Below, in pieces: positions 830 through 28,375 of a DNA stretch of 32,000 bases (position 1 is the stretch's first letter; each line of letters begins with the position of its first letter). A model generated the notes under the pieces. The model saw only the letters and a program-made list of their open reading frames with translations. It was not told where the DNA came from and ran no database searches. This DNA comes from Geotalea uraniireducens Rf4 (lineage in GTDB: Bacteria > Desulfobacterota > Desulfuromonadia > Geobacterales > Geobacteraceae), in contig NC_009483.1 of assembly GCF_000016745.1 (NCBI RefSeq), positions 510,001 to 542,000 of the forward strand. Direction: 5' to 3'. The position numbers and the translations under genes were made by a program.

Positions 830-2164
830 CAGTAACTTCCGGTTAGGTTTTTGCACGACGTTTCTTACGTTTCAACTGTCTAATTTTGTTTGAGTTACCT
901 TGTATTCTTGTGCGACGGCTCTGCTGTTCGGCTGCTGCTTCATTTGCAATCTGATTGCGTAATTCTCGTACCCTGCTAATGCTGACTGGCTCCTGGTGCT
1001 GCTCACGGCAATAGATGGCTAGCAGCAGATAGGTGATGAGACCACCAAGTATTTGAACCATGAGACCATATTCGCTTCTGGCAATCAGGTGATACACCTT
1101 TAGGTGGCGTTTCCACCAACCGAAGAAGGTCTCTATGTTCCAGCGCAGTTTATAAACCTGGGCCACTTCTTCAGCCGTCAGGTCGTATCTGTTGGTTGCT
1201 ACCCAGTAGTCCTTGCCGTCAATACGGTAACCAACAAGGCGCAGCTCTTTCTCAGTCTGGTTTATACCTTTGGTGCCGAGAAGTACTATCTGGTCATAGA
1301 AGACAATACTGTCAGGATTTACGGCATTCTCTCTGATGACGGTTTTGTGTGTATTCTCCCTGATACGGCAGACAAAAAACTTCTCGGCGGCCTGCCACTG
1401 GTCAAAGTGATTATGAGACTGATACCCACGATCCATGACACCGGTTTCGCCTTTGTCGATGATCTTATCAACAAAGGGGCGCTCACCCTCTTTACCGTCG
1501 GTCAGGAATATCTTCCTTGGAATACCACGGTTGATATCGAAGCCGATATGGGCCTTGGCCTTCTTAGAGCCGCTTCGGTAATCTGCCCATTCCATAGATA
1601 GAACAGCATCTATCAAAGAACCGTCTATGGATACCAGATTGCCAAGGTGAGCATATTCATCGGGAAGCACTCTGCCTGCTTGCTTGACAAGATGCCCGAA
1701 TACCTCGGAAAGCTGTTCAAGACCACGGTTGTTGATTGCCTCAAAGAAAGAGCTCTTTTTGATTCCCTTGGGGGGAGCAACACATTCCTTGGCGAAGTCA
1801 TCCTGATCCAGCGCCTGGAGAAGTTCGCTCCCGGAAGAGAACTCTTCCAAGTGATAAAAGATCAGGGCTTTTAGCTGATCATCGAAAGTCATTTGCAACG
1901 GGCGATACCCCCTGGATTCAAGTTCATTATCTGACTTGAATCTCTCAAAAATCGGGGTAAGAAGCAATTTGAAAGCGCGTGATTTTCGTCTTTGTTTCAG
2001 TCGTTTGAACGGTCGCATATCGTAACTCCTGTAATATTGGATAGTTACGAGTGCGGACCACCGTTTTTTTACTCAAAGTCAAGCAAATAATGCGGTATAA
2101 CGCTGATTTTACAACTTTTTTACATTCTCAAAGAACCTTGCAAAGACCAAACCGGACAATGCTG
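830..2164 (-). mobile_element. Complete IS4-family insertion sequence (1335 bp) with imperfect 25-bp terminal inverted repeats and a 9-bp target-site duplication
   Basis: Left end 830-854 is CAGTAACTTCCGGTTAGGTTTTTGC. Its reverse complement matches the right end 2140-2164 (GCAAAGACCAAACCGGACAATGCTG) at 19 of 25 positions. The identical direct repeat TATTTTTAT lies immediately outside both ends (821-829 and 2165-2173). The interior is visibly more AT-rich than the flanks and holds a single DDE transposase ORF. Confidence 0.85.
843..2018 (-). CDS. IS4-family DDE transposase
   Basis: 391-aa ORF. The C-terminal YKLRWNIETFFGWWK fits the Y-x2-R-x3-E-x6-K signature of IS4-type transposases, and MDRGY and IDGS acidic-motif candidates lie upstream. 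The stop codon sits inside the left terminal repeat. Confidence 0.85.
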   Translation of the reverse strand: MRPFKRLKQRRKSRAFKLLLTPIFERFKSDNELESRGYRPLQMTFDDQLKALIFYHLEEFSSGSELLQALDQDDFAKECVAPPKGIKKSSFFEAINNRGLEQLSEVFGHLVKQAGRVLPDEYAHLGNLVSIDGSLIDAVLSMEWADYRSGSKKAKAHIGFDINRGIPRKIFLTDGKEGERPFVDKIIDKGETGVMDRGYQSHNHFDQWQAAEKFFVCRIRENTHKTVIRENAVNPDSIVFYDQIVLLGTKGINQTEKELRLVGYRIDGKDYWVATNRYDLTAEEVAQVYKLRWNIETFFGWWKRHLKVYHLIARSEYGLMVQILGGLITYLLLAIYCREQHQEPVSISRVRELRNQIANEAAAEQQSRRTRIQGNSNKIRQLKRKKRRAKT

Positions 2165-2288
2165 TATTTTTATAGGAGTTTCAGGATATTTTCAACATTA
2201 ATTAATTGCAAATATTACTTCCGGGAGGTGCCAAAGCTTTTATTTTACGGGGCGTAACAGACATTTATGATTCTTGAGAGGAGGTATT

Positions 2289-4214
2289 ATGTCGGAAAAG
2301 GCAATTAAAAAGACGAAGCTGCTGTTACTTGCGTTACTGGGCGTTGTTATTATCAGCACCCTGGTGATATGGGGCTGTGGAACAAAGGGGTACGATAATC
2401 CGGCAGCCGTATCTGCGGCCAAGTATTACGCCAACGACGCCACGGTGAATACCATGATCGATCCCGCCACGGTAAACAGGTGGGTTACTCAAGGGAATAA
2501 AACAGACGACGGCAAGCGAGTCGTGATTCTTGACGTTTTTCCCAACGATACCGATACCGACAGCTGGTTTGCGGGTGATTCCACCCTGATAAAACAGCAG
2601 ATGATCACTCAGTACGGTGGAACCCTGAGCCCTCAATACAAGATGATCGACGGTCTGAAAAATGCGAACCTGCTGGGGCACATCCCCGGCGCAATTCCCC
2701 AGGTTTCACATGCCGGCTACGAGGTAGCCACCAGGAACGATGGCCCGATCGAGACCGAACACGAGGTGGGGACCGGCGCCTATATCGATCAGATGCTCCA
2801 GAAGCTGGGGGTCAACAAGGATGATGTGCTCGTTCTGACCACTTCGCGCTATGACTACCCCGGCTTCTGTTCCGCGCGGCTCTTCTGGACCCTCTACTAC
2901 TGGGGCTTTTCCAGAAACAATATCAAGGTCTTGAACGGCGGCAACAAGGCATACGCCCAAGCCGGATTTCCGCTTGAAACAGGCAAGGTGATTTCCACGA
3001 TCACCCCTTCCACGTTCAGTGTCACCCAACTTGGCCAGAAACATCTCGATGCACGGATAAGTATCGGTGAGATGATCCAATTGGTGGACAGCGGGGCGAC
3101 CAACCAGACCACGGGCAGCGTCGTTGTGCTCGATACCCGTCAACCACCGGCGGCCTACTATTTCCTCGATCAGGATAACAACGGGATTCCGGATGCATTT
3201 GAAATACCCGGATATACGATGTCCAAAAACTCCACGGAAGGTCTCTATTTTGTGAGGAATAGCGACGGTAGGCATGTGACGCTGAGCGAACTGCTCTTCA
3301 AGGAAACAACCCCTGCCCGCGTGGCGTTCAGCGGATCATCCAACCCTCCGATCACCCTTCCAAACGCCTTTATCGGGATTACGGCTCCGGCCGGCCCCAA
3401 TCCCAATGGCGGTGTCCCGCTTTCCTTCCCGCTCGGCAACAAGGCCGCCGCCTTCGAAGGAATCATCAAGGGGGCCAAGGTCACCAAGACCGGCACATAC
3501 AACATAACCGTGCCGTCTCTTTGCAAGCCGGACGGTGTCAGTTATCTCGACCAGGCTGCCATGAAGTCCGTCTTCGCCACCGCCGGTATCGACGGCAGCA
3601 AGCCGATCGTAGTCTACTGCAACTCCGGTGCGCTGGCCTCCATCTACTATTATGCCCTGCACGAGGTCTGCGGTTTCCAGAACGTCAAGATCTACGACGG
3701 CTCATGGCTGGAATGGGCCAATATGGCGGCCTATGAGCCTACCGATCCCACCTATGTGATGAACGACGACTACACTGCCTATCCGTCCTATCCCGCTCCA
3801 AGCCCGTCGGTGGTCTTCTATGCCGCGTCGAACAAGTACCTTGAGTGGGACGGGACCCAGTTCGTCGACTCATTCACAAAACAGCCAGTCAACGGGCTGG
3901 TCAAGAAGGGTGGCGCCCTCGGCGGCAACACGTTCTGGGATACGGCACACCGCTCCGAGCACGTGATGTTCAGGCCTCTGGGCTCCTTGACATACACGAT
4001 GCTTACTTCGACACCAAACAGTTCCATAGCTTTCCTTTATAACAACAAAACTTACAGCAGCCTGACCGACTGGGCTCCGATCGTCACTCATCCCGCCTAC
4101 AGCGGGGCAGGAAGTGAGATCAACAACACGGACAAGGCATACACCACCCCCGCCGGTGCATCGAGCGGCAGCAGCGGGCCTGCGCCCTTCATCCCCAAAG
4201 GTGGCGGCTGCTAG
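2289..4214 (+). CDS. extH: Rhodanese-domain outer-membrane lipoprotein (ExtH-like), long paralog
   Basis: GAGGAGG RBS 4 nt before ATG 2289. Signal peptide with lipobox LVIWG-C. Rhodanese-type modules (VVILDV...GHIPGAI, and a C-terminal catalytic loop VYCNSGALAS followed by YDGSWLEW). Gly-rich tail ending ...PKGGGC-stop. Confidence 0.75.
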   Translation: MSEKAIKKTKLLLLALLGVVIISTLVIWGCGTKGYDNPAAVSAAKYYANDATVNTMIDPATVNRWVTQGNKTDDGKRVVILDVFPNDTDTDSWFAGDSTLIKQQMITQYGGTLSPQYKMIDGLKNANLLGHIPGAIPQVSHAGYEVATRNDGPIETEHEVGTGAYIDQMLQKLGVNKDDVLVLTTSRYDYPGFCSARLFWTLYYWGFSRNNIKVLNGGNKAYAQAGFPLETGKVISTITPSTFSVTQLGQKHLDARISIGEMIQLVDSGATNQTTGSVVVLDTRQPPAAYYFLDQDNNGIPDAFEIPGYTMSKNSTEGLYFVRNSDGRHVTLSELLFKETTPARVAFSGSSNPPITLPNAFIGITAPAGPNPNGGVPLSFPLGNKAAAFEGIIKGAKVTKTGTYNITVPSLCKPDGVSYLDQAAMKSVFATAGIDGSKPIVVYCNSGALASIYYYALHEVCGFQNVKIYDGSWLEWANMAAYEPTDPTYVMNDDYTAYPSYPAPSPSVVFYAASNKYLEWDGTQFVDSFTKQPVNGLVKKGGALGGNTFWDTAHRSEHVMFRPLGSLTYTMLTSTPNSSIAFLYNNKTYSSLTDWAPIVTHPAYSGAGSEINNTDKAYTTPAGASSGSSGPAPFIPKGGGC

Positions 4215-4298: not shown

Positions 4299-5504
4299 AT
4301 GATTAATAACAAAAAAACCGGTATCCTCAGCGCGACCCTGCTCGGCCTGACCCTGATGACCGGGACCGCCTTCGCCGGTCCCCGCATCACCTTCGGCCCG
4401 GAGGACCAGGGCGCATTGCAGATCGACTATAAGGGACAGTTACAGATGACGGTCCGGGATACCGGATCAGGCGAGAACAATGACGATACCACCACCAATT
4501 TCAACTTCCGCCGCAACCGGCTTGCCTTCATGGGCAAGTACGGCGAGATGCTGAGTCTCTACGTCCAGACGGAATTTACCGAGGACCAGAACGTGACCAC
4601 CCTCGGCGTCGCCAGCACCAACCAGGGGACGGAATTCCAGCTCCTCGACGCGGTGATGCGCTTCAAACTGAACGACAGTTTCCATGTGAACGCCGGCAAG
4701 TTCAAGTACAACCTCTCCCGCGAGAACCTGGAAGCGTGCGAGATGCCCCTGACCCTCGACCGGTCGCTCTTCATCCGCACCGCCTACACCACCACCCGTG
4801 ACACCGGGGTAGCGGTGTGGGGCAACCTGTTCAATGACATCTTCCAGTACCGCGTCGATGCCATGGAAGGGCGCAAGGCCGTATCGGGCGATACCGCTCC
4901 CAGTTCAAATTTCCGCTACTCCTTCCGCGGCCACGTCACGCTGCTCGATCCTGAGAACGATTATGGCTACAAGGGCACCTACCTTGGAAAGAAGAAGGTC
5001 CTGACCATCGGCGGCGCCTATCAGTTCGAACCGGAGATAGCCTATGGCGATACGGTTACCAGAACGGACAAGAAGGACTACCAGGCCTGGACGATTGATG
5101 GCTTCTTCGAGTATCCCCTTGAAGGAATCGGCACCGTCACAGCATCCGCTGCCTATGAAGATGTGGACCTGGATGACGCCTACAAAGGAGCCAATCCCGA
5201 CGCGGGAACCATCGGCCTCAACGGGCAGAAAAACGGCTGGTACGTGAAGGGGGGGTACATGCTCCCGAACCTTCCGCTGCAGTTCTTCGGCCGATACGAG
5301 AAGTGGCGTTTCGCCGAACTGAACAACATTTCCGACCAGAAGGTCGACTGGTACGGGGGGGGCGCCAATTACTACTTCCGTGGCCAGAACCTGAAGCTGA
5401 CCTTCGAAGCGGCACACACTGCCTTCGACAAGGATGGGACGGTCAACGGAGTGACGAGCAAGGATTTCACGACGTTCGTCACCCAATTGCAGCTGATATT
5501 CTAA
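4299..5504 (+). CDS. extI: Outer-membrane beta-barrel porin (ExtI-like / OprO-P-like)
   Basis: AGGAG RBS. Signal peptide ...GTAFA/GP. Alternating hydrophobic pattern rich in aromatic, Gly, Asn and Asp residues, with a C-terminal ...TQLQLIF typical of OM barrels. Near-identical paralog at 9972-11177. Confidence 0.75.
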   Translation: MINNKKTGILSATLLGLTLMTGTAFAGPRITFGPEDQGALQIDYKGQLQMTVRDTGSGENNDDTTTNFNFRRNRLAFMGKYGEMLSLYVQTEFTEDQNVTTLGVASTNQGTEFQLLDAVMRFKLNDSFHVNAGKFKYNLSRENLEACEMPLTLDRSLFIRTAYTTTRDTGVAVWGNLFNDIFQYRVDAMEGRKAVSGDTAPSSNFRYSFRGHVTLLDPENDYGYKGTYLGKKKVLTIGGAYQFEPEIAYGDTVTRTDKKDYQAWTIDGFFEYPLEGIGTVTASAAYEDVDLDDAYKGANPDAGTIGLNGQKNGWYVKGGYMLPNLPLQFFGRYEKWRFAELNNISDQKVDWYGGGANYYFRGQNLKLTFEAAHTAFDKDGTVNGVTSKDFTTFVTQLQLIF

Positions 5505-5541: not shown

Positions 5542-5859
5542 ATGAAAAAATCATTCACACTTGTTGCGACATTGCTCATAACCGTTGTTTTAGCGGCCGC
5601 CTCCATTGCCGCCGGCACTTTTACCGGAAAAGTAACCGCAGTCGACGGAGAAAAAGTATCGGTTACGGTTGACAAGGAGCTCCCCGCCTGGGTGAAGAAA
5701 GGGAGCGCTGTTCAGGCAATGGGAGGTGCCCCGATGGTAGTCGAGGTAAATGGGAATGTGGTCGTGCTCAAGTTCATCAAGGCCAAGGCTGCCAAGATCA
5801 AAGCTGACAGCAGCATGACCATCAGTGAATCGTCCGGTGACGAGCTCCAGGGTTGCTGA
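5542..5859 (+). CDS. extJ: Small secreted protein (ExtJ-like) ending in a C-terminal Cys
   Basis: AAGGAG RBS. Signal peptide MKKSFTLVATLLITVVLAAASIAA. 105 aa. Ends SSGDELQGC-stop, identical to the tail of the paralog at 11226-11546. Confidence 0.7.
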   Translation: MKKSFTLVATLLITVVLAAASIAAGTFTGKVTAVDGEKVSVTVDKELPAWVKKGSAVQAMGGAPMVVEVNGNVVVLKFIKAKAAKIKADSSMTISESSGDELQGC

Positions 5860-5911: not shown

Positions 5912-7273
5912 ATGATGAAACAACGCGTAACCGGTGCCCTGGCCCTGCTTGCGGCCTCCGCCATCCTGGTCGGTCCGGCCTTCGCAGGTAATGTCGGAAT
6001 CGGGCGGGACAAGACGATAGCCGCCACAATGGGGAAGGCCAAAACCCTTGCCGAACTGGCAAAGATGTACGACTCAAGTTCCTGCATCGAATGTCATCAG
6101 GACAAGCACGACGAATCGCAGAAGTCCATACATTCGCGCTCCATCTTCGGTACGGCGCGGACGGCGCTGACCATAATGACCACCATCGAGAACGGTCTCA
6201 TGGAAGAGCCGTACTCGGGGGTGAAGAGCCCGAAGGACGTCAAGGTGGAACACCTGATGGGGTGCGCCAAGTGCCATCTGCCGCAACTGGCCGATGCCGA
6301 TGACTCGGTGGCCCAGGAGATCGTTACCACCCTATACGACTGGAAGACCGCCCTGAAGAAGAAAGACAAGGTTGCGGCAATGAAAGAAGAAGAAAAACTC
6401 AAGAGCGTCAGTATCAACTGTCTTATCTGCCACAACCGCAATGCCATCACCCACAAGTGGCAGGACGGCTATGCGAAGGCGGGGGTGATCTACGGCTCAA
6501 AGGACGGTGACCACCCTTCGGACAAGTTTCCCAAGATGGCAGTAAGTCCCATCATGAGCGAAGCTATCCAGTGCGGTCAATGTCACGGCATGGGACCGAA
6601 CCTGGAACTGGATGAGCCGACCCAGTGTTGTACGAGTTACGGCAGCTATCTCTGGGCCTACAAGTCCGAGATAGGGCAGAAGAACTGCCAGGACTGCCAC
6701 ATGAGGGAGAGCAAGCTCGGCCACAACATCCAGGCTTACCGTGACCCGGCGATGGCCAAGGCGGCGGTGGATTTCAAGACCGAAACATTCGGTTACTACT
6801 GGCGTGACGGAGCAGACATCAAACCGAAAGCGGTGGTCAAGGTGGAAATGATCAACCGGGCCGGACACTCCATCCCTGATGGCTGACCGACCCCCAACCG
6901 ACTGGTTCTGTCGGTAATAGCAAAAACGAAGGATGGCAAAGAAGTGTTCAACCAGGAGAAGATCTACATGCCGGTACCGCAGCAGTTGGGTCGTGGCGAC
7001 CGGATGGGGCGCGGCCCCTACGAAAAGAGCGGGTTGATTGAAGACACCGGGTTGCCGCCGGGCAAAGCAGTCCACGAGCGTTTCGATATCATGTTCCCGA
7101 TTGAAGAGGTGGAAGTGGACGGCAAGTTTGTCAACAAACCCGCGACCTACGACCTGGACGTCGAGGTGAAGCTCTGGTATCTCCCGTTCGGCCCGCTCGG
7201 AAAGCCGAGCAGCGATCCGTTTCTATGGCGGGAGTTCAGCAAGACCGTCAGCATCAGCATCAAAGGGAAGTAA
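5912..7273 (+). CDS. extKL: Pentaheme c-type cytochrome, predicted selenoprotein (TGA 6884-6886 read as Sec); fusion of track ORFs 5825-6886 and 6944-7273
   Basis: GGGAGGA RBS before ATG 5912. Signal peptide ...GPAFA/G. Five CXXCH motifs (CIECH, CAKCH, CLICH, CGQCH, CQDCH). The downstream track ORF is in the same frame (6944-5825 = 1119 = 3 x 373). Codons 6887-6943 are open and have no RBS of their own. The same architecture is present in the paralog. Confidence 0.75.
6884..6915 (+). promoter_or_regulatory. Candidate bacterial SECIS: UGA plus downstream stem-loop
   Basis: TGA at 6884-6886. Stem ACCGAC (6897-6902), loop TGGTTCT (6903-6909), stem GTCGGT (6910-6915). The GGUU in the loop lies about 20 nt from the UGA. 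The sequence is identical in the paralog. Confidence 0.6.
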
Positions 7274-7308: not shown

Positions 7309-7336
7309 GCCGGCGCGAAAACGCCGGCTTTTTTTT
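7309..7336 (+). terminator. Rho-independent terminator after module 1
   Basis: GCCGGCG-CGAAAA-CGCCGGC perfect 7-bp stem followed by T8. Confidence 0.8.
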
Positions 7337-7344
7337 ACATACTG

Positions 7345-8262
7345 CTACGCAGGGAAATTTATGGGGCGTGTCAAGTCGAATGCTGCAAAAAGGCAATCAA
7401 TGAAAACCTGGAGAGAAGGGGACAATTCCTGGCGGGCAAGTATCAGGGTGCGTGGCCGGCAGTGGCTGAATTCGCTGACTCGGTGGCCCCGAAGCAGGCC
7501 GCTTCGCAGCTCTTCCGCAACAATGCCGCTCGATGCGAACATGATCCCTTTGCCGGCAAGGACCTCACGGATGATGAAGGTGAAATCGTCGAAATAGACC
7601 ACGCTCGAGAATTCGCCGCAGGTGCGGCCGACCGTCCGCAGGTTCTTGTCGATGAACCGCTTCGCGCACCCCTTTTCGTTCTTCAGGTAAAGGCGTTCGC
7701 CGAAGAGCCGGTCGATGGTGGTTTCTTTCGCGGCGATGCCTAGTGCGGGAGCACTGAAAAACAGCACTTCGTCGTCGGGGAGGGGATGGGTGGCGTGGCT
7801 TTTCAGGTCGACCTCGTCGCAGTGTTCGATCAGGGCGAGGTCGAAGCGGCCGCTGTCGATTCCCACAAGCGCCTCCTCGGGCATGGCGAAGACGCAGTTC
7901 AGGTCGACGGTGGTGGCGTGGTCGGCAACAAAAGAAGAAAGGACACTGGGCAGACGGTCGATGCCGAGGGACGGGGTGCAGCAGAAGGAGATTTTCTGTT
8001 TGCCCTTGCTGATGTCGAGGCTGTCGAGGAGTTCCCGCTCGAGGTCAAGGATCTTGCGAGCCTTGTCGATCAGCATGTGCCCGGCATCCGTCAGCACGAG
8101 CGATGCTCCGGACCTTTCCATGAGCGGTTTGCCCACGTAATCCTCGAGTTGCTTGATACGACGCGAAACCGCCGACTGGGTGACGAAAAGGACGGCCGCG
8201 GCCTTGGAGATGTTACCGACGGCTGCAACCTTCAGGAAGGTTTTGAGAAGTACGAGATCCAT
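7345..8262 (-). CDS. LysR-family transcriptional regulator, divergent from module 2
   Basis: wHTH ISKAAAVLFVTQSAVSRRIKQLEDYVGKPLMERSG. The start is probably ATG 8262 (MDLVLLKTF..., aligning with MESIYLKTL of the paralog; purine-rich AGAGGG 7 nt upstream). The track start at 8325 is probably an over-extension. Confidence 0.85.
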   Translation of the reverse strand: MDLVLLKTFLKVAAVGNISKAAAVLFVTQSAVSRRIKQLEDYVGKPLMERSGASLVLTDAGHMLIDKARKILDLERELLDSLDISKGKQKISFCCTPSLGIDRLPSVLSSFVADHATTVDLNCVFAMPEEALVGIDSGRFDLALIEHCDEVDLKSHATHPLPDDEVLFFSAPALGIAAKETTIDRLFGERLYLKNEKGCAKRFIDKNLRTVGRTCGEFSSVVYFDDFTFIIREVLAGKGIMFASSGIVAEELRSGLLRGHRVSEFSHCRPRTLILARQELSPSLQVFIDCLFAAFDLTRPINFPA

Positions 8263-8298
8263 GGCCATGCCCTCTTCAAAGTGCCGGTATGCGCGTTG

Positions 8299-8315
8299 CG
8301 CATGCCGATCATGCG
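8299..8315. promoter_or_regulatory. Palindrome CGCATG-N5-CATGCG in the LysR / module-2 divergent region (candidate LysR operator)
   Basis: Perfect 6-5-6 inverted repeat about 40 bp upstream of the LysR start. A related TGCGCAT...CATTC.CTT string occurs upstream of the other LysR gene (783-819). Confidence 0.3.
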
Positions 8316-8518
8316 AAACATTCACTTACGGTTATCCCAAAAAAACCGATATAGTGCAATAAAGAAATATAATGCGAATTGGGTTACTAAATAATATTCA
8401 TATTGTTTGGTGGAGTCGGCGGTGTTTCCCGGCAAGCCGGGGTCTCACCGGCGCTGCACAAGATGCTGCCGTCAGCCGGATTCGTCCGGGACGGAAATTT
8501 CATTAATAGGGAGGTCGT

Positions 8519-9895
8519 ATGGCAAAACAGGTATGGAGAAAGGGGCGGATCGTGCTGGCGGGCATCTGCGGCGTTGTCGCGCTAACCTTGCTGGCCATGT
8601 GGGGCTGCGGCACGAGCGGGTATGACAATCCCTCGGCCGCAGTGGTGACAACAAAAACCGCCACCGCCCTGATTCAGGCGGCCGACCTGAAGCGATGGGC
8701 GGATGCCGGGCTGGTGAACAAGGCGGGGGGGTATGACCGGGTGGTCATTCTTGAAGTTACCACCAATACCAACAATTATAACGGTGAGCATATCCCCGGT
8801 GCCATCAGCGTAAACCGCGCCACGGATATTGCGGTGCAAAGGGTGGAGGGACCGGCTCTCACAGGTGATCTGGTGGCGGACGGCAAGATGATGGACGCGC
8901 TTATCCAGCGCTGTGGTATCGACCAGAACACCACCATCGTTTTCACGACATCCGAGGCCGAGATGAACGCGGACAATCACTACAATCTCACGCGCGGGTA
9001 TGCGACGTTCCGCTACTGGGGCTTTCCGAAAGAGCGGCTGAAGGTCCTCGACGGCGGCAACAAGGCTTGGAAGGCGGCGGGGCTGCCGATGACCACCATA
9101 GTTCCCGGCATCAAGAGCTCCACGTACTGCGTGACCCCCGATAATACCAACAGGGTTCGCGACGACCTGCGGGCCACCTTGTCCGACATGATCAAGGCGG
9201 TTCAGGCTGTCCAGGCGGGGACGGCCACGTATGATTTCATTGACGGCCGTGCGGATGGTGTGCCCGGTGAAACTCAGGACATTATTGACACAACATTGAC
9301 AGGACCAACATACGATACGACAACAACACCACCAACAATAAAATCGGTAGGTGGACTAAAAAAAGATGTTGTTTTCGAGGGTCAGGTGAAAGGCGGCAGG
9401 GGGTATGCCTATTCCAACCTGCGTGATGTGACCACGAGAAAATTTAAATCGATCTCCGACGTAATCGCCGGTTTGGATCTCCAGAAGCCAACCACCTATG
9501 TCATGTGCCGTTCAGGAAACATTGCCACGGTGCTGTTCTTCGCCATCGACGGCTACGCTTTCTATGACGGCTCAAAAAAGGCCGTTTGGTACGACGGCTC
9601 CTGGGGGCAGTGGGGGCTGATGGCAACTTCCGATCAACTCACTACCGCGGGTATAATTGCGGGAGGCAAACTGCCGGTTGGATCGGCCTGGTCGACGGTA
9701 TCGCTCACCAATATCCTCTCGTACAACAAAGACAACACTTTACGGACTGTCATCGACATTACCTCTCGCCTTGCTCCGGTCTCCCACGCCGATGTGAATG
9801 CCAACCAGACTGAAGAGGCGGACAAGGCGTATCGCAGTCCGGTATCCACCTCCGGTGGCGGTGCTACTGTTGGCGGTGGCGGTGGCGGCTGCTGA
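8519..9895 (+). CDS. extH: Rhodanese-domain outer-membrane lipoprotein (ExtH-like), short paralog
   Basis: GGGAGG RBS. Lipobox LLAMWG-C followed by GTSGYDNPSAAV (compare GTKGYDNPAAV in the paralog). N-terminal rhodanese-like domain without a catalytic Cys (VFTTSEAE). C-terminal catalytic loop VMCRSGNIAT followed by YDGSWGQWG. Tail ...GGGATVGGGGGGC-stop. Confidence 0.75.
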   Translation: MAKQVWRKGRIVLAGICGVVALTLLAMWGCGTSGYDNPSAAVVTTKTATALIQAADLKRWADAGLVNKAGGYDRVVILEVTTNTNNYNGEHIPGAISVNRATDIAVQRVEGPALTGDLVADGKMMDALIQRCGIDQNTTIVFTTSEAEMNADNHYNLTRGYATFRYWGFPKERLKVLDGGNKAWKAAGLPMTTIVPGIKSSTYCVTPDNTNRVRDDLRATLSDMIKAVQAVQAGTATYDFIDGRADGVPGETQDIIDTTLTGPTYDTTTTPPTIKSVGGLKKDVVFEGQVKGGRGYAYSNLRDVTTRKFKSISDVIAGLDLQKPTTYVMCRSGNIATVLFFAIDGYAFYDGSKKAVWYDGSWGQWGLMATSDQLTTAGIIAGGKLPVGSAWSTVSLTNILSYNKDNTLRTVIDITSRLAPVSHADVNANQTEEADKAYRSPVSTSGGGATVGGGGGGC

Positions 9896-9971: not shown

Positions 9972-11177
9972 ATGATAAAAATCACCAAGACAGTACGAAT
10001 TTCGACAGTGGCAGCCGGCTTGCTTCTGGTTGCCGGTACGGCCTTCGCCGGTCCGCGGATGACCTTCGGCCCCAACGACGAAGGTGCTTTGCAGATCGAC
10101 TACAAGGGGCAGTTACAGATGACGGTCCGGGATACCGGATCGGGCGAGAACAACGACGACACCACCACCAACTTCAACTTCCGCCGCAACCGGCTCGCCT
10201 TCATGGGCAAGTACGGCGAGATGCTGAGCCTCTACGTCCAGACGGAATTCACCGAAGACCAGAACGTGACCACCCTCGGCGTCGCCAGCACCAACCAGGG
10301 GACGGAATTCCAGCTCCTCGACGCGGTGATGCGCTTCAAACTGAACGACAGTTTCCATGTGAACGCCGGCAAGTTCAAGTACAACCTCTCCCGCGAGAAC
10401 CTGGAAGCGTGCGAGATGCCCCTGACTCTCGACCGGTCGCTCTTCATCCGCACCGCCTACACCACCACCCGTGACACCGGGGTAGCGGTGTGGGGCAACC
10501 TGTTCAATGACATCTTCCAGTACCGCGTCGATGCCATGGAAGGGCGCAAGGCCGTGTCTGGAGATACCGCTCCCAGTTCCAATTTCCGCTACTCCTTCCG
10601 CGGCCACGTCACGCTGCTCGACCCCGAGAACGATTACGGCTACAAGGGGACCTACTTGGGGAAGAAGAAGGTTCTGACCATCGGCGGTGCCTATCAGTTC
10701 GAACCGGAGATAGCCTATGGCGATACGGTTGCCAGAACGGACAAGAAGGATTACCAAGCCTGGACGGTTGATGGTTTCTTCGAGTATCCCCTTGAAGGAA
10801 TCGGCACAGTCACCGCTTCCGCTGCCTATGAAGATGTGGACCTGGATGATGCGTACAAAGGAGCCAATCCCGACGCGGGAACCATCGGCCTCAACGGGCA
10901 GAAAAACGGCTGGTACGTGAAGGGGGGGTACATGCTCCCGAACCTTCCGCTGCAGTTTTTCGGCCGCTACGAGAAGTGGCGTTTCGCCAGCCTCAACAAC
11001 ATTTTCGATCAGAAGGTCGACTGGTACGGGGGGGGCGCCAATTACTATTTCCGTGGCCAGAACCTGAAGCTGACCTTCGAGGCGGCACACACTGCCTTCG
11101 ACAAGGAAGGGACGGTCAACGGCGTGAGGAGCAAGGATTTCACGACGTTCGTCACCCAATTGCAGCTCATCTTCTAG
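9972..11177 (+). CDS. extI: Outer-membrane beta-barrel porin (ExtI-like), paralog 2
   Basis: Same length (401 aa) as 4299-5504. After the signal peptide only a handful of substitutions are visible. Ends TQLQLIF. Confidence 0.75.
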   Translation: MIKITKTVRISTVAAGLLLVAGTAFAGPRMTFGPNDEGALQIDYKGQLQMTVRDTGSGENNDDTTTNFNFRRNRLAFMGKYGEMLSLYVQTEFTEDQNVTTLGVASTNQGTEFQLLDAVMRFKLNDSFHVNAGKFKYNLSRENLEACEMPLTLDRSLFIRTAYTTTRDTGVAVWGNLFNDIFQYRVDAMEGRKAVSGDTAPSSNFRYSFRGHVTLLDPENDYGYKGTYLGKKKVLTIGGAYQFEPEIAYGDTVARTDKKDYQAWTVDGFFEYPLEGIGTVTASAAYEDVDLDDAYKGANPDAGTIGLNGQKNGWYVKGGYMLPNLPLQFFGRYEKWRFASLNNIFDQKVDWYGGGANYYFRGQNLKLTFEAAHTAFDKEGTVNGVRSKDFTTFVTQLQLIF

Positions 11178-11225: not shown

Positions 11226-11546
11226 ATGAAGAAGCTGATGACAACGATATCCGTGTTCTTGGCGACGGTAGCGCTGGCGGCAGTTGCCCTGGCGGCGAAC
11301 GCATCCTTCACCGGCAAGGTGACCAAGATCGACGGCACGAAGGTAACGGTAACGGCCGAGCAGGATATCCCTTCGTGGGTGAAGAAGGGGGCCAACGTCT
11401 CCGCCTTGGGGGGGGCTCCCAAGGTTCTCGAGGTGAAGGGGAAGGAGATGGTATTGCGGTTCGGCAAGGAGAAGGCGGCGACGATCAAGACAGACTCAGC
11501 CGTCACGGTCAACGAGTCGTCGGGCGACGAGCTCCAGGGGTGCTGA
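11226..11546 (+). CDS. extJ: Small secreted protein (ExtJ-like) ending in a C-terminal Cys, paralog 2
   Basis: AAGGAGG RBS, signal peptide, 106 aa, ends SSGDELQGC-stop. Confidence 0.7.
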   Translation: MKKLMTTISVFLATVALAAVALAANASFTGKVTKIDGTKVTVTAEQDIPSWVKKGANVSALGGAPKVLEVKGKEMVLRFGKEKAATIKTDSAVTVNESSGDELQGC

Positions 11547-11599: not shown

Positions 11600-12955
11600 A
11601 TGATGAAACAACGCGTAACCGGCGTCCTGGTTCTGCTGGCGGCCACTGCTGTTTTGGTCGGGCAGGCTTTTGCCGGCGGCAAGGCGGGGATCGGCTGGGA
11701 GGAGACCATTGTCGCCAAATCGGGCAAGGCGAAGACCCTTGCCGAACTGGCGAAGATGTACGACTCCAGTTCCTGCATCGAATGCCACCAGGACAAGCAT
11801 GACGAAGCACAGAAGTCCATACATTCGCGCTCGATCTACGGCACGGCACGGACGGCGATGACCATAATGACCACCATCGAGAACGGACTGATGGAAGAGC
11901 CGTATTCGGGGGTTAAGAGTCCGAAGGACGTCAAGGTGGAGCACCTGATGGGGTGCGCCAAGTGCCATCTGCCGCAACTGGCTGATGCCGAGGATTCGGT
12001 CGCCCAGGAGCTCGTTACCACCCTCTACAACTGGAAGGGAGCCCTGAAGAAGAAAGACAAGGCTGCGGCGAAGAAAGAAGAGGAAAAACTCAAGAGCGTC
12101 AGCATCAACTGTCTTGTGTGCCACAACCGCAATGCCATCACCCACAAATGGCAGGACGGCTACCCGAAGGCGGGGGTGGTCTACGGCTCAAAGGATGGGG
12201 ACCATCCTTCGGACAAGTTTCCCAAGATGGCTGTAAGTCCCATCATGAGTGAAGCGATCCAGTGCGGCCAATGCCACGGCATGGGGCCGAACCTGGAGCT
12301 TGATGAGCCGACCCAGTGCTGTACGAGTTACGGCAGCTATCTTTGGGCCTACAAGTCCGAGATAGGGCAGGAGAGCTGCCAGGACTGCCACATGAAGAAG
12401 AGCAAGCTCGGCCACAACATCCAGGCATACCGCGATCCGGCGATGGCCAAGGCGGCAGTGGATTTCAAGGCCGAAACATTCGGTTATTACTGGCGCGACG
12501 GCGCAGACATCAAACCGAAAGCGGTGGTCAAGGTGGAAATGATCAACCGGTCCGGCCACTCCATCCCCGACGGCTGACCGACCCCCAACCGACTGGTTCT
12601 GTCGGTAATAGCAAAAACGAAGGATGGCAAAGAAGTGTTCAACCAGGAGAAGATCTACATGCCGGTACCGCAGCAGCTGGGGCGGGGAGACCGGATGGGG
12701 CGCGGCCCCTACGAGAAAAGCGGCATCATCGAGGATACGGGGTTGCCGCCCGGCAAAACTGTCCATGAGCGTTTCGATATCATGTTCCCTATAGATGAGG
12801 TGGAAATGGACGGCAAGTTTGTCAACAAGCCCACGACCTACGATCTGGATATCGAAGTGAAGCTCTGGTACCTGCCTTTCGGAACGCCGAACTCCGACCC
12901 GTTTCTGTGGCGGGAATTCAGCAAGACTGTCAGCATCAGTAAAGGTGGCAAGTAA
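11600..12955 (+). CDS. extKL: Pentaheme c-type cytochrome, predicted selenoprotein (TGA 12575-12577 read as Sec); fusion of track ORFs 11600-12577 and 12635-12955
   Basis: GGGAGGA RBS, signal peptide, five CXXCH motifs. 12635-11600 = 1035 = 3 x 345, so both pieces share one frame. Context ...INRSGHSIPDG-TGA-PTPNRLVLSVIAKTKDGKEVFNQEK.... Confidence 0.75.
12575..12606 (+). promoter_or_regulatory. Candidate bacterial SECIS (paralog 2)
   Basis: TGA at 12575-12577. ACCGAC (12588-12593), TGGTTCT loop, GTCGGT (12601-12606). Confidence 0.6.
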
Positions 12956-12992: not shown

Positions 12993-13023
12993 GACCGACG
13001 GTCACCACCGTCGGTCTTTTTTT
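12993..13023 (+). terminator. Rho-independent terminator after module 2
   Basis: GACCGACGGT-CACC-ACCGTCGGTC perfect 10-bp stem followed by T7. Confidence 0.85.
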
Positions 13024-13110: not shown

Positions 13111-14973
13111 ATGAGATCATCTAACCCAAAATTGAGCTTTTCCGCGAGGCGCCTGTGGCTGTTTCTGCTTGTACTCCTTGCGCTTACGGGCTGTGGTGTG
13201 CGCAGTGGTAAAACAACCGCATGCGAATCGTGCCATCAGCATATTGAAAAGGTATCAACAAGCCATCCTGACTGTATTTCCTGTCATGGCGGCGACCCTC
13301 AGGAAAAAAACAAGAATGCTTCCCATCTCACCATGTTTGGGCCGAAAAACCCTGCTGCGCCTCAATACTGGGACAAAACCTGTGGCGCTTGTCACCTCTA
13401 TCAACTGGGCAGGGTCAAGGCAAACCTTATGTACACCGCTACCGGGATGATCAAAAACACCCAGATCACCTGGGAGGGTGCGGACAATCAGCTTTACAGC
13501 AGCAAGGGAGGGGATGTTTACGATTCTAAAGGGAATCCGCAACGGTTGAAGCCGGTTTCCGAACTCGACCATTTATCCGGTGAACTGTATCGCAAGTTCT
13601 GCTCGCAATGCCATGTTGCCGAGGAAACAGACGATGTGTACAGCGCCAGTCATGCATCCGGCTGCGCCGCATGTCATTTTCAATATAACAATACGGCAAC
13701 CTACGAGGGTAAGGACGCGACGGTCAGAGGCAAAACTCCCTATTCCGCCAGCCATGCAATGGAAAAGCTTCCCGATAACAAGACCTGTTCCCGCTGCCAC
13801 AATCGGAGTGGCCGGATCGCCCTTTCCTATGAGGGGCTCTACGACGGCAACAACTCAATGGTGCCGACAAAGAACGGTCTTCCCGGGCCGGTTATGCTCA
13901 GTGGCCCCCGCAACGCCGCCCATATTGCCGCTGATGTCCATGCCGCTGCGGGGATGGACTGTATTGACTGTCATACATCGCGGGATGTCATGGGGGACGG
14001 CTATGCCTATGAGAACATGTATCTCCAGACCGAGATCAGCTGTGAGGACTGCCATGGCGGGGCCAAAGTTCCCCGTTACCGGGAAATAACGAGGGAGAAC
14101 GGCGAGGCGCTGCGGGAGTCTAAAAGCTATAGAATGCGGATGCGGCCGGCGATGAAAATGCTGGTGACTGCCAAAGGGCGCACCTACTCCAATGTCTTTT
14201 ACCGGGACGGCGTTGTCTATGTCCTCGGCAAGCGGAGCGGAAAGCTGTTCAAAAGCAAGGTGATCACCGGGACCCCCGAGCATACGATTGTCGGTCACGG
14301 CCGAATGGAATGTTACGCCTGCCATTCGCGGACCGTGGTCCAGTGCTATGGTTGTCATACCACCTATGACAAAACCAAAACCGGCATGGATTTTATCAAG
14401 GGGGTGGAAACCCCCGGTCGCTTCAGCGAGAAGGAAGATTACCGGATGTTGTATCCCTTCCCCCTGGCGCTGAATCAGCGGGGACGGATATCTCCCGTTA
14501 CCCCCGGCTGCCAGACCTTTATCACCGTTATCGAGGCGGACGGCACTACCTCAAAGAACGAATACGTGGCGCGCTACAAAGGGAAGCAACAGTTGCGCTT
14601 CGCCCCGTTTTATTCCCACAACACCGGCAAGAAAGCTATCGGCTGTAGTGAGTGCCACGGCAATCCGGCATTTCTCGGATTCGGCCAGCATGTCGTGGCA
14701 GGCGCCGGCATCTACGGCACGCTGATCTGCGAGCAATCAGCGGACAAGCCTCTTGATGGCTACCTCACCCTGCAAGAGGGGAAGGTGCGGGCGTACTCCG
14801 CCATAACCCGGGAACATTCCCGGCCGCTGAACGGAAAAGAAGTGCGGCGGACCCTGGCGGTCAATATCTGCATCGTTTGCCATGACAAGGCAAAGGATCC
14901 AATTTACCGAAAGGAACTCAACTATCGTGCGCTTAATGATGCTCTGCATCGCCGTCTGCTTTCTGACCGCTAA
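13111..14973 (+). CDS. 12-heme c-type cytochrome lipoprotein
   Basis: Signal peptide with lipobox LALTG-C. Twelve CXXCH motifs counted (CESCH, CISCH, CGACH, CSQCH, CAACH, CSRCH, CIDCH, CEDCH, CYACH, CYGCH, CSECH, CIVCH). Confidence 0.85.
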   Translation: MRSSNPKLSFSARRLWLFLLVLLALTGCGVRSGKTTACESCHQHIEKVSTSHPDCISCHGGDPQEKNKNASHLTMFGPKNPAAPQYWDKTCGACHLYQLGRVKANLMYTATGMIKNTQITWEGADNQLYSSKGGDVYDSKGNPQRLKPVSELDHLSGELYRKFCSQCHVAEETDDVYSASHASGCAACHFQYNNTATYEGKDATVRGKTPYSASHAMEKLPDNKTCSRCHNRSGRIALSYEGLYDGNNSMVPTKNGLPGPVMLSGPRNAAHIAADVHAAAGMDCIDCHTSRDVMGDGYAYENMYLQTEISCEDCHGGAKVPRYREITRENGEALRESKSYRMRMRPAMKMLVTAKGRTYSNVFYRDGVVYVLGKRSGKLFKSKVITGTPEHTIVGHGRMECYACHSRTVVQCYGCHTTYDKTKTGMDFIKGVETPGRFSEKEDYRMLYPFPLALNQRGRISPVTPGCQTFITVIEADGTTSKNEYVARYKGKQQLRFAPFYSHNTGKKAIGCSECHGNPAFLGFGQHVVAGAGIYGTLICEQSADKPLDGYLTLQEGKVRAYSAITREHSRPLNGKEVRRTLAVNICIVCHDKAKDPIYRKELNYRALNDALHRRLLSDR

Positions 14974-16177
14974 CGCGGCAAACGGCAGCGCCGGTGAAAA
15001 CTGCACGGTCTGTCACCGGGTGACCCTCAAAGGTATCCATGCCTCACTGTCGTGCCTTTCCTGCCACGGGGATGAGATCAAGACCCTCGGCAATCCGGCA
15101 GCTGCAGCGAACCGTGCTGCCGGTTGCGTCGGCTGCCACCGGGGGTATGAAGTGCTGTTCGATCACGCCATGGCTACGAGAAAAAGTGAAAAGCTCTTTG
15201 TCGATCGGACAATCGGCACGATCGATCCGGCATTTTTCCGGAACAACTGCAACTCCTGTCACCTGCGTAGCTGCACCGACTGCCATGGGGGAAACGGCCA
15301 CGACATTGCCAGGGCAACGGACCGGAGCTGTTTCACCTGCCACAAGGGGTATTTTGTTGGAACCGATTACTACGGCATGGCCCCGCGGGAGGACAGCCTC
15401 CGCTATCAGCGGGGGGCGGTTGCCTACGGCGAAACATACCTGAAAATGACCCCCGACGTCCACGCGGAGGGGGGGGTGAAATGTGGCGCCTGCCATTCCA
15501 TGCGAAGTCTTGTTGCGGGTTACAAGTCGTCAAAAAAGTGCGTTGACTGTCACAAGGTGAACAAAAAGGTCATTGAACACCGGATCAGCGCCCATCTGGA
15601 AAAGATGGAGTGCTTTGCCTGTCACTCTGCCTGGACCCCGCAGGAATACGGGACGTTCTATCTCCGATTTGCGGAGAGCCCGTCGCAGGATTATTATCGG
15701 GTCCGGAACAACGAGGGCAATTATGTGAAAAGCGCCTACCTGCGCAAGCAGGACGCTCCGCCGCTCGGTATTAATGCTCGCGGCAAGGTCAGCCCGATCC
15801 GGCCGGAGTTTGTGTTCTATTTTACCGACATCAGGAACGACCGGCCGGTCGGGACGGAGAACCGCCTGCTGGCGGCTGAGTGGAAGGCGTTTTTCCCCCA
15901 TACGATCCGCCGCGGAACGGTCATGTGCGAGGGGTGCCACGATAACCCCCGCCGCTTTATCATGGAGAGGCATGAGGACAGGATCTACCAGTTGCAGGCC
16001 GACGGCATGACGCTGCCGTCCTTCTGGGACAGAACCGGTCAAAAGGTAACGAATGGTGATTTTCTTCCCGTTTCACGGTATCTGCAGCTGACGAAAAAGA
16101 GCCCGGCCTACCAGAAAGCGTACATAGAAAAATGGCAGAAGCTGGTCAATCACGTCGAAAATTCATCGCAACCCTGA
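14882..16177 (+). CDS. 10-heme c-type cytochrome
   Basis: Ten CXXCH motifs (CTVCH, CLSCH, CVGCH, CNSCH, CTDCH, CFTCH, CGACH, CVDCH, CFACH, CEGCH). The start is uncertain. ATG 14882 gives a charged n-region plus a hydrophobic core but overlaps the upstream gene by 92 nt. The alternative is ATG 14936. Confidence 0.8.
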   Translation: MTRQRIQFTERNSTIVRLMMLCIAVCFLTANAANGSAGENCTVCHRVTLKGIHASLSCLSCHGDEIKTLGNPAAAANRAAGCVGCHRGYEVLFDHAMATRKSEKLFVDRTIGTIDPAFFRNNCNSCHLRSCTDCHGGNGHDIARATDRSCFTCHKGYFVGTDYYGMAPREDSLRYQRGAVAYGETYLKMTPDVHAEGGVKCGACHSMRSLVAGYKSSKKCVDCHKVNKKVIEHRISAHLEKMECFACHSAWTPQEYGTFYLRFAESPSQDYYRVRNNEGNYVKSAYLRKQDAPPLGINARGKVSPIRPEFVFYFTDIRNDRPVGTENRLLAAEWKAFFPHTIRRGTVMCEGCHDNPRRFIMERHEDRIYQLQADGMTLPSFWDRTGQKVTNGDFLPVSRYLQLTKKSPAYQKAYIEKWQKLVNHVENSSQP

Positions 16178-16524
16178 TCCTGTCGCTGGCGGGACTCTTT
16201 TCCCTCGGCAGGTTCCTCACTCCCCGCGTCCGGCAGAAGAAGACGCTGCTCCGCGCGGCAAAGGCCGACTTGCCGGTCCATGGGGCGCTGGTCTACAAGG
16301 AGGCGAGGGTGGCGGTAATGCGCGAGGGGGATGTCGTCTATGCCCTGAACCTGGTCTGCACCCACCTTGGCTGCACGGTCAATGTCACGCCGACGGAGCT
16401 GGTCTGCCCCTGTCACGGCAGCAGTTTCGACCGGCAGGGGCGTGTCCTGAAAGGGCCTGCGGATCGGCCGCTGCTGCGCTATCGTGTCGAAGAACGGGGT
16501 GATTATTTCGAGGTGGTCGTCTGA
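16132..16524 (+). CDS. Rieske [2Fe-2S] protein with Tat-type N-terminus
   Basis: SRRKFIATL twin-arginine motif plus a TM segment. Rieske boxes CTHLGCTV and CPCHGSSF. Overlaps the upstream gene by 46 nt. Confidence 0.85.
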   Translation: MAEAGQSRRKFIATLILSLAGLFSLGRFLTPRVRQKKTLLRAAKADLPVHGALVYKEARVAVMREGDVVYALNLVCTHLGCTVNVTPTELVCPCHGSSFDRQGRVLKGPADRPLLRYRVEERGDYFEVVV

Positions 16525-16545
16525 TGGACAGCTCCGGAGGTCCGC

Positions 16546-17166
16546 TTGATTAACGAGTTTCTGATGCATCTCTTTCCCCGGGTCGTGCCGAGAAAGAACC
16601 TGACGGTTTCCTATACCTTCTGTCTGGGCGGGTTGGCCTTTACCTCCTTCATGCTGTTGGCGGCTTCCGGGGGGCTGCTCCTTTTCTATTACCAGGCGTC
16701 GCCGGAAAAGGCCTTCAGCTCGATTCTCTTTCTTGAATCGTCCATCTGGGGCGGCCGCTACCTGCGCAGCCTCCACCGGCTTGCCTCCCATTTCTTCCTG
16801 GTGCTCATTCTTCTCCATACCCTGCGGGTCGTCCTGACCGGCGCCTATCAAAAGCCCCGGGAGTGGAACTGGGTTCTCGGGTGCGGACTTTTGCTACTGG
16901 CCATATTCGAGGCTTATACCGGGTATTTGCTCCCGATGGATCAGCTTGCCCTATGGGCCACCCAAACCGGCATGGAGTTGGCCGCCACGGTGCCTATGGG
17001 CTCTTTCGTGCGCGGCATCCTGGTACCCGACGGTGTGGGACAGCCGATGTCGCTTTTACGTTTTTATGTACTGCATATCATGCTTGTTCCGCTGGGCGTG
17101 CTGCTGCTCAGTTTTCTGCACTTCTACCGAATCAGAAAAAACAAGGGGGTTTTACCCTACCTATGA
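16546..17166 (+). CDS. Cytochrome b, b6-type N-terminal half (split cytochrome b)
   Basis: GGAGG lies 5 nt before TTG 16546. YTFCLGGLAF matches the b6 CxGG motif that covalently binds heme ci/cn. Conserved His pairs occur in helices (SLHRLASHFFLVLILLHTLRV; FYVLHIMLVP). Confidence 0.8.
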   Translation: MINEFLMHLFPRVVPRKNLTVSYTFCLGGLAFTSFMLLAASGGLLLFYYQASPEKAFSSILFLESSIWGGRYLRSLHRLASHFFLVLILLHTLRVVLTGAYQKPREWNWVLGCGLLLLAIFEAYTGYLLPMDQLALWATQTGMELAATVPMGSFVRGILVPDGVGQPMSLLRFYVLHIMLVPLGVLLLSFLHFYRIRKNKGVLPYL

Positions 17167-19998: not shown

Positions 19999-20093
19999 GG
20001 GTGCGATTTCTCCTATATTGATTCGGTGGCTGAATATCTGAATGGTAAGGGCTCGGCTTGCCGCACCCAATCTGTGGCGGGCGCAGTCCGCCC

Positions 20094-27432: not shown

Positions 27433-27450
27433 GAAAGGGGGGATTACTGA

Positions 27451-28222: not shown

Positions 28223-28251
28223 TAGTTTCTTGTTTCTGTTGATGTATTATT

Positions 28252-28285
28252 CCGGGGTGGGGCGTAAGCCCCATCCCGGTTTTTT
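28252..28285 (+). terminator. Rho-independent terminator after arrB
   Basis: CCGGGGTGGGGC-GTAA-GCCCCATCCCGG (12-bp stem with one G-U pair) followed by T6. Confidence 0.8.
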
Positions 28286-28294
28286 AGTAAGTTA

Positions 28295-28332: not shown

Positions 28333-28375
28333 GTTAACGTACTTACCCTGTTTATAAGGGTGTGAGGATTATGCC

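Follow-up and report, generated by a model that had tools for sequence, protein, structure and literature searches.

Two cytochrome genes on the plus strand of a 32 kb stretch of Geotalea uraniireducens Rf4 DNA (32,000 nucleotides; referred to below as the window) are each almost certainly read through a single in-frame TGA. Each of these extKL genes would be one gene, mccsep, for a predicted periplasmic pentaheme cytochrome c of ~450 residues, in which the UGA at codon 325 in copy A and at codon 326 in copy B is predicted to be decoded as selenocysteine (Sec). Judged by sequence comparison, the fused open reading frames are full-length orthologs or paralogs of Geobacter sulfurreducens MccSep (= ExtKL, GSU2937-2936). 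The MccSep/ExtKL family, its Sec insertion and its Sec/heme chemistry are already known from published work and have been structurally solved. The genes and codons concerned are as follows.

5912–7273, plus strand: mccsep/extKL copy A, a 453-codon open reading frame through the TGA at 6884–6886, with putative signal peptide, five CxxCH motifs, predicted Sec325 and a C-terminal Ig-like domain
6884–6886, plus strand: UGA, predicted Sec325 codon of copy A; aligns with X (Sec) of PDB entry 9WT8 and with Ala of the U325A mutant (PDB entry 9WT9)
6626–6628, plus strand: copy A site in the context DEPTQCCTSYG, an invariant column of a 23-sequence alignment; role taken from PMC13510729
11600–12955, plus strand: mccsep/extKL copy B, a 451-codon open reading frame through the TGA at 12575–12577
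12575–12577, plus strand: UGA, predicted Sec codon (residue 326) of copy B, placed by translation and residue positions

Copy A was matched over residues 11–453 to the sequence of the MccSep crystal structure (PDB entry 9WT8) with an E value of ~1e-233, and the TGA falls on Sec325 of that entry. Full-length identity to G. sulfurreducens MccSep is 74% for copy A and 76% for copy B. Against NCBIfam NF040886 (multiheme c-type cytochrome (seleno)protein ExtKL; equivalog cutoff 250 bits) the two copies scored 580.9 and 593.2 bits, respectively. The five CxxCH motifs of copy A start at C58, C118, C170, C221 and C259, and those of copy B are the same, shifted by one. All of the published catalytic residues (R83, H122, C239, U325 and K372) are present in both copies, and the C239 and H122 columns are invariant in the 23-sequence alignment; by analogy with the ortholog structure, heme 2 would be ligated by His122 and Cys239 in both. 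In the alignment, the N-terminus MMKQRVTGALALLAASAILVGPAFA, followed by G, corresponds to the experimentally cleaved 25-residue signal of the G. sulfurreducens protein (PMC13510729). Residues 2–325 of copy B are identical to Gura_0453 of G. uraniireducens Rf4. The two copies are 90% identical to each other, with mostly synonymous differences.

The name extKL and an earlier in silico prediction come from PMC5877670, so the initial annotation was right that ExtK and ExtL had been reannotated as one selenoprotein; ExtKL is also included in a list of prokaryotic selenoproteins (PMC13188914). In the G. sulfurreducens enzyme, the residue encoded by the UGA was shown to be Sec by ESI-MS of the peptide VEMTNHAGHSIPDGUPTPNR, by a selenium content of 0.96 Se per subunit and by the crystal structure, and a sulfur-respiration phenotype has been described (PMC13510729, Sci Adv 2026). 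The crystal structure at 1.75 Å (PDB entry 9WT8; further entries 9WT9 and 9WTA-C) has one chain that spans both parts (PMC13510729). MccSep, a homotetramer, is a polysulfide reductase with activity on selenite as well; its Sec attacks polysulfide beside a His/Cys-ligated heme, and activity is lost in the U325A, U325C and C239H variants (PMC13510729). The remark in the initial annotation that the chemistry of a Sec next to five hemes is unexplained was overtaken by a 2025 preprint and then by the 2026 paper (PMC13510729).

On translation, the frames of copies A and B contain one TGA each and no other interruption, and the 19 codons that follow it read PTPNRLVLSVIAKTKDGKE in both, as had first been noted from the reading frames. 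The peptide around the TGA is VEMINR(A/S)GHSIPDG-U-PTPNR. Over the first 100 codons downstream of the TGA the copies differ by 22 synonymous and six non-synonymous codons, which indicates purifying selection on this part. The comparison covered 80 related genome loci (50–88% protein identity) assigned to Geobacter, Geomonas, Citrifermentans, Desulfuromonadales, Desulfobulbaceae, Nitrospirota, Vicinamibacteria, Gemmatimonadota and Caldimicrobium. The TGA lies at the same codon and is followed in frame by PTPNR in 80/80; none of these homologs ends at IPDG, and in-frame conservation continues past this point in all of them. At codons +1 to +3, P-T-P is invariant in the face of synonymous variation, which shows that the spacer is translated. 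The question of whether other species carry Cys in the TGA column was answered by some distant homologs (P0098, P0101 and P0110 in the alignment), in which the Sec site reads IPDGCPT with a TGC codon.

As originally annotated, the TGA would be a true stop, with ExtK (~324 residues) and ExtL (~106–109 residues, from the GTG at 6944 or 12635) as separate proteins. Gene callers do end hundreds of database homologs at ~324 residues, and the AGGA at 6930–6933 lies 10 nt upstream of GTG 6944; this motif is weak and not conserved, but with it the earlier claim that no ribosome-binding site precedes the downstream piece is not strictly true. The probability of two separate proteins is nevertheless practically negligible, since the 19 codons from TGA to GTG are kept as protein in all 80 loci with synonymous variation, GTG occupies that codon in only 15 of 82 sequences, the Cys-type homologs are continuous proteins of ~450 residues, the ortholog crystallized as a single chain across both parts, and in G. 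sulfurreducens the only band recognized by an antibody against the downstream part is one of 49 kDa (PMC13510729). It is also extremely improbable that the UGA is read through independently of Sec by a near-cognate Trp or Cys tRNA, or that at least one copy is a decaying pseudogene. An IS transposase does lie beside copy A, whose module has an atypical ExtH, but both copies retain all catalytic residues and have the hairpin intact, their differences are mostly synonymous, and the TGA is conserved in all 80 loci; a non-Sec product would be useless, given that the ortholog loses nearly all activity when changed to U325C or U325A (PMC13510729).

A hairpin of the SECIS type follows the UGA in each copy.

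6897–6915, plus strand: SECIS-type hairpin of copy A, stem ACCGAC/GUCGGU and loop UGGUUCU
12588–12606, plus strand: SECIS-type hairpin of copy B, same sequence as in copy A

The hairpin consists of a 6 bp stem and a 7 nt loop and begins 10 nt after the TGA. Counted from the U of the UGA, its loop starts after 19 nt and the loop GG lies at 20–21 nt, in agreement with the coordinates and geometry first proposed (GGUU ~20 nt from the UGA). bSECISearch looks for a stem-loop shortly downstream of the UGA with an apical loop ~16–37 nt away and a G in the loop; the hairpin of copies A and B has this distance and this loop G. Homologous sequences were divided between two hairpin types. In 33 type-1 sequences the hairpin is 100% paired, with no double changes and with A-U replaced by G.U in two sequences. 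In the 37 type-2 sequences another hairpin, derived by hand and about as far from the UGA, is 90% paired, compared with 22–52% for slid controls, and a single pair shows three double changes; RNAalifold gave no useful consensus for these 37 sequences. An alternative pairing of minimum free energy (6886–6891 with 6910–6915) was rejected: it is broken by synonymous variation in 5/33 sequences, whereas the hairpin proposed initially is never broken in the 33 and was retained for that reason.

Synonymous variation is frozen over the hairpin. Leu+6 is CTG in 72/72 sequences, Leu+8 is CTG in 80/80 and Ser+9 is TCG in 36/36, while the other two Leu columns each use five codons. Across 82 sequences the codon entropy is zero at Leu+6, Leu+8 and Ser+9, reduced at Thr+11, and normal at +1 to +3 and from +12; nucleotide conservation beyond the need of the protein is confined to the hairpin. 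The structure is thus supported by conservation and not by covariation, as there are almost no compensatory changes. The folding energy is unremarkable (z-score −0.34 versus shuffles), and in the 82 GC-rich genes a median of 26% of control windows from the same gene fold as well as the post-UGA window. Rfam gave no SECIS or other meaningful match, either at gathering thresholds for the whole window or at permissive thresholds for 6860–6990. The conserved hairpin sequence is absent from the DNA of three Cys-type homologs, one of which has CTC at Leu+8. With three sequences, from GC-rich genes that tend to fold in any case, this observation is anecdotal.

By the mechanism that we propose, SelB carrying Sec-tRNA(Sec) would bind the post-UGA hairpin, whose loop would present GGU ~20 nt from the UGA, and would deliver Sec to the ribosome, as in bacterial Sec insertion generally. 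No selA, selB, selC, selD or tRNA gene of any kind was found within the 32 kb window. The product would be a homotetrameric polysulfide/selenite reductase, as shown for the 74–76% identical G. sulfurreducens enzyme. The heme chain would conduct electrons to heme 2, with its His122/Cys239 ligation; Sec would attack the substrate to form an Se-(S/Se)-S bridge with Cys239, and heme electrons would then cleave this bridge.

Both copies lie in an ext gene cluster in which two tandem extH-extI-extJ-extKL modules are followed by extM, extN and genes for a Rieske protein, cytochrome b and a c-type cytochrome.

2274–4214, plus strand: extH-like rhodanese protein of module 1, atypical, 646 residues; Pfam Rhodanese; NF040901 at 173.8 bits in two stretches (cutoff 200)
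4299–5504, plus strand: extI porin of module 1; NF040900 at 714.6 bits
5542–5859, plus strand: extJ of module 1; NF040942 at 68.8 bits
7309–7336, plus strand: intrinsic terminator after copy A, seven G-C pairs and then T8
8519–9895, plus strand: extH of module 2; NF040901 at 377.8 bits
9972–11177, plus strand: extI porin of module 2; NF040900 at 718.2 bits
11226–11546, plus strand: extJ of module 2; NF040942 at 76.4 bits
12993–13023, plus strand: intrinsic terminator after copy B, a 10-pair stem and then T7
13111–18361, plus strand: extM, extN, Rieske protein, cytochrome b and c-type cytochrome; NF040943 at 1100 bits, NF040967/NF040968 at ~690 bits, Pfam Rieske, Cytochrome_B and Cytochrome_CBB3

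Equivalog cutoffs are passed by ExtI, ExtJ, ExtM, ExtN and the module 2 ExtH; the module 1 ExtH falls below. Module 2 is the canonical one, and its copy B, being syntenic with extM, is probably the ancestral ortholog. Module 1 has a very divergent ExtJ and adjoins the IS transposase; copy A, with this ExtJ and the atypical ExtH, might serve another function or see less use.

The two extKL copies share one long identical block around the Sec codon.

6881–6985, plus strand (= 12572–12676): 105 nt identical between copies A and B, exact limits; spans the UGA, the hairpin and ~70 nt more

The identity and limits of this block are as the initial annotation gave them. As evidence for the recoding signal it is poor, since the synonymous constraint among orthologs ends by codon +12. 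Identical runs of 170, 128 and 104 nt also occur between the neighbouring extI copies, which have no recoding; the 105 nt block is therefore not specific to the SECIS, and gene conversion is likely. About 30 nt of the block reflect the recoding signal, and the remainder is likely to have arisen by conversion between the tandem copies. That the whole of 6881–6985 is an extended recoding element held identical by selection, and not a conversion tract, seems improbable to us. The block is the longest identical run in the cytochrome gene, the next longest being 48 nt, and ~24 more identical codons past the hairpin have p near 0.01 in our own calculation from the rate at which the copies differ synonymously (52/294 codons). 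Synonymous diversity, however, is normal again from codon +12 in the 82 orthologous sequences, and the extI runs together with an intervening extJ region only 47–69% identical form a conversion-like mosaic. A tentative idea, which we consider rather unlikely, is that the tandem modules are functionally specialized Sec-dependent reductases (for example polysulfide versus selenite/tellurite), with conversion homogenizing the porins and the segment with the Sec site and SECIS while the rest diverges; in a weaker variant, the region beyond the hairpin (6916–6985) may aid recoding.

The detection of a real recoding event from the raw sequence alone shows that reasoning of this kind from reading frames works. 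In older annotation these genes are still in two pieces, with Gura_0453 given as a 324-residue 'hypothetical protein', and most metagenomic database homologs are likewise truncated at the UGA. The small addition made here is a tandemly duplicated, partly homogenized MccSep pair in G. uraniireducens.

Compared with MccSep of G. sulfurreducens PCA, both copies are alike in the Sec position (GHSIPDG-U-PTPNR), the five CxxCH motifs, Cys239/His122, R83, K372 and a putative signal peptide, and in being preceded by extH-extI-extJ and followed by extM, extN and the remainder of the cluster. They differ in forming a tandem pair, each member having extH, extI, extJ and a terminator of its own, and in that copy A sits in an extra module with a 646-residue ExtH and a strongly diverged ExtJ. 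The SECIS of Escherichia coli fdhF is a hairpin inside the coding sequence from ~11 nt after the UGA, with a loop G and U ~20–24 nt away. The hairpin of copies A and B resembles it in its coding-sequence location and in the distance of the loop G/U, but has a 6 bp stem, a 7 nt loop, no bulged U, an unrelated sequence and no Rfam match. Other MccSep clades have a hairpin different from that of copies A and B. Desulfuromonas acetoxidans, a sulfur-reducing member of the Desulfuromonadales, has two MccSep homologs as well (DACE_RS03845 and DACE_RS14575; PMC13510729); their locus tags suggest that the genes are far apart, whereas the copies described here are in tandem and probably exchange sequence. 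In TsdA and SoxAX, as in MccSep, a catalytic heme axially ligated by Cys acts in sulfur–sulfur chemistry, but these enzymes have no selenocysteine, differ in fold and heme count, and work in the opposite physiological direction, that of thiosulfate oxidation (PMC13510729).

The fused protein encoded by copy A (the mccsep/extKL reading frame at 5912-7273) was matched to PDB entries 9WT8 and 9WT9, the Geobacter sulfurreducens protein deposited as 'Multiheme cytochrome c selenoprotein (MccSep)', over residues 11-453 (E ~1e-233). The TGA column aligns with X (Sec325) of the wild type and with Ala of the U325A mutant. Copy A shares 74% and copy B (the paralog at 11600-12955) 76% identity with G. 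sulfurreducens MccSep, and the two products are 90% identical to each other. Both were scored above the cutoff of 250 (581 and 593 bits, respectively) by NF040886, the NCBIfam equivalog model for 'multiheme c-type cytochrome (seleno)protein ExtKL'. These matches and the conservation of the TGA support the reading of the initial annotation, in which both genes were predicted to encode selenocysteine multiheme cytochromes. Its coordinates were re-derived on the window and were all right, and the UGA-interrupted paralogous cytochrome ORFs were confirmed, with frames, hairpins and identical block found again. Both products have a hydrophobic, signal-like N-terminus and five CxxCH motifs, and the sequence around the TGA is VEMINR(A/S)GHSIPDG-TGA-PTPNRLVLSVIAKTKDGKE. 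In its N-terminal piece, copy B matches Gura_0453 of Geotalea uraniireducens Rf4 without a single difference.

Features of the two modules
843-2018, minus strand: DDE transposase gene (IS element), just upstream of module 1
2274-4214, plus strand: module-1 ExtH-like rhodanese protein, 646 aa, TTG start (module-2 ExtH, 458 aa)
5912-7273, plus strand: copy A frame, ATG 5912 to TAA 7271-7273, with the TGA at 6884-6886 as its sole interruption
6897-6915: hairpin ACCGAC/UGGUUCU/GUCGGU in copy A
7309-7328, followed by T8: strong intrinsic terminator after copy A
7345-8325, minus strand: LysR-family regulator gene between the modules, divergent from module-2 extH
11600-12955, plus strand: copy B frame, starting at ATG 11600, with one TGA (12575-12577)
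12588-12606: the same hairpin in copy B
12993-13016, followed by T7: strong intrinsic terminator after copy B

The genes upstream of each copy match the ExtH, ExtI and ExtJ equivalog models (module-1 ExtH below cutoff), and copy B is followed by matches to ExtM and ExtN and then by a Rieske protein, cytochrome b and a further c-type cytochrome. The window therefore contains an ext cluster, as described for Geobacteraceae (PMC5877670), with its extH-extI-extJ-extKL part present twice (module 1 with copy A, module 2 with copy B). The module-1 ExtH was matched by the NCBIfam ExtH model in two stretches (173.8 against a cutoff of 200) and seems to contain a large insertion or an additional domain. 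Copy B adjoins extM and its N-terminus is closer to that of the G. sulfurreducens protein than is that of copy A; on these grounds it is probably the ancestral ortholog. The DDE transposase may be linked to the origin of the extra module. A second respiratory reductase cluster adjoins the ext cluster (18784-21190, minus strand, and 24865-29954, plus strand), with moeA and mobA-like molybdenum cofactor genes and a TAT-signal molybdopterin oxidoreductase of 855 aa accompanied by an Fe-S subunit. A NarJ-like chaperone and additional ferredoxin-like proteins are encoded there too.

For comparative analysis, homologs were scanned using one genome per species, which gave 80 loci (protein identity 50-88%) whose record titles include Geobacter, Geomonas, Citrifermentans, Desulfuromonadales, Desulfobulbaceae, Nitrospirota, Vicinamibacteria, a Gemmatimonadota MAG and Caldimicrobium. 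The initial annotation had named homologs ending at ...IPDG as evidence against recoding; instead, TGA at the Sec codon is followed by in-frame PTPNR at all 80 loci. Codons +1 to +3 after the UGA each vary among four synonymous codons with the amino acids (Pro, Thr, Pro) invariant, and the stretch directly after the UGA is therefore translated. Over the 100 codons after the TGA, copies A and B differ by 22 synonymous and six non-synonymous codons. Cys, which the initial annotation had suggested might occupy the TGA column elsewhere, was found in distant full-length homologs (proteins P0098, P0101 and P0110; IPDGCPT, codon TGC). Close relatives in the protein database are almost all ~324 aa long because gene callers cut at the UGA. 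The GTG taken by the ORF finder as a downstream start is kept in only 15 of 82 sequences. The claim that this downstream piece lacks a ribosome-binding site had to be amended: a weak Shine-Dalgarno-like motif, AGGA (6930-6933), lies 10 nt before the GTG at 6944. Neither of the two is conserved, the motif being replaced by AAAGA in close orthologs.

Decoding of the UGA has been documented for the G. sulfurreducens ortholog: an antibody against the downstream part of MccSep detected a single 49-kDa band, the selenium content was 0.96 Se per subunit, the peptide VEMTNHAGHSIPDGUPTPNR was identified by ESI-MS and crystal structures contain U325 within one chain (PMC13510729).

Codon usage was analysed in the 82 sequences. 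Codons +1 to +3 show normal synonymous diversity, as do those from +12 on. Between these positions Leu+6 is CTG in 72/72, Leu+8 is CTG in 80/80, Ser+9 is TCG in 36/36 and Thr+11 is ACC in 40/46; the other two Leu-consensus columns within 45 codons use five codons each. The constrained stretch, at ~+12 to +36 nt, corresponds to the hairpin. The sequences fall into two classes. In type 1 (Geobacter relatives, including the window sequences, Desulfuromonadales and Vicinamibacteria; 33 sequences) the stem proposed in the initial annotation is paired in 100% of cells, the sole change being A-U to G.U. In type 2 (Nitrospirota, Desulfobulbaceae, Caldimicrobium and others) a different hairpin, displaced downstream by a few nucleotides (GC.GGUCC ... 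G.GACCGC), is 90% paired compared with 22-52% for slid controls and includes one pair with three double changes. ACCGAC occurs twice (6886-6891 and 6897-6902), both times complementary to GUCGGU (6910-6915). The minimum-free-energy fold uses the first, which starts at the A of the UGA; this fold is disrupted synonymously in 5/33 sequences, and the hairpin with 6897-6902 is therefore preferred. Since its folding energy is unremarkable, no matching Rfam family was found (whole window; permissive thresholds on 6860-6990) and true covariation is almost absent, support for this putative recoding element comes from position-specific conservation and from analogy with bacterial SECIS elements. In the Escherichia coli fdhF element, a stem-loop begins ~11 nt after the UGA and its apical loop contains G and U. 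SelB would bind to the hairpin.

The 105-nt identity between the copies (6881-6985 = 12572-12676) is exact and its limits were correctly placed. As an extended recoding element it fared less well: constraint among orthologs is over by codon +12, but the block reaches codon +33. The two modules were aligned from extI through extKL. For most of their length the extI copies (4299-5504 and 9972-11177) share 92-100% identity, and they include uninterrupted matches of 170, 128 and 104 nt. DNA identity is only 47-69% in the extJ region (5542-5859 and 11226-11546) and ~90% in extKL. This mosaic suggests gene conversion between old tandem duplicates, or modules of different origin, and the block would then probably be a further tract of this kind, with the SECIS inside it by coincidence, rather than an extended recoding element. 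A contribution of selection to its identity is very improbable.

Full-length pentaheme homologs of a sister group (P0065, P0067, P0073 and 11 others) lack both Sec and Cys at the catalytic position, where T, G, V, I, L or A stands in a GHS(I/L)P(D/G)SxS-like motif. They keep the five hemes and Cys239, and lie outside the published definition of the MccSep family. At four loci (L048:4940, L081:873, L082:845 and L083:2597) such a gene directly precedes an mccsep of the Sec or Cys type.

Residues R83, H122, C239, U325 and K372 are kept in both copies, and C239 and H122 are invariant in a 23-sequence alignment. In the solved G. sulfurreducens enzyme heme 2 is ligated by His122/Cys239, activity is lost in the U325A, U325C and C239H variants, and the protein is required for growth on elemental sulfur (PMC13510729). 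In the proposed cycle, Sec attacks polysulfide (or selenite), and an Se-(S/Se)-S bridge to Cys239 is then formed and reduced by heme electrons (PMC13510729). The earlier remark that the chemistry of a Sec beside five hemes is unexplained has been overtaken by this work. The UGA-interrupted cytochromes are members of a known, structurally and biochemically characterized selenoprotein family, MccSep/ExtKL, which is already recognized by NCBI annotation models.
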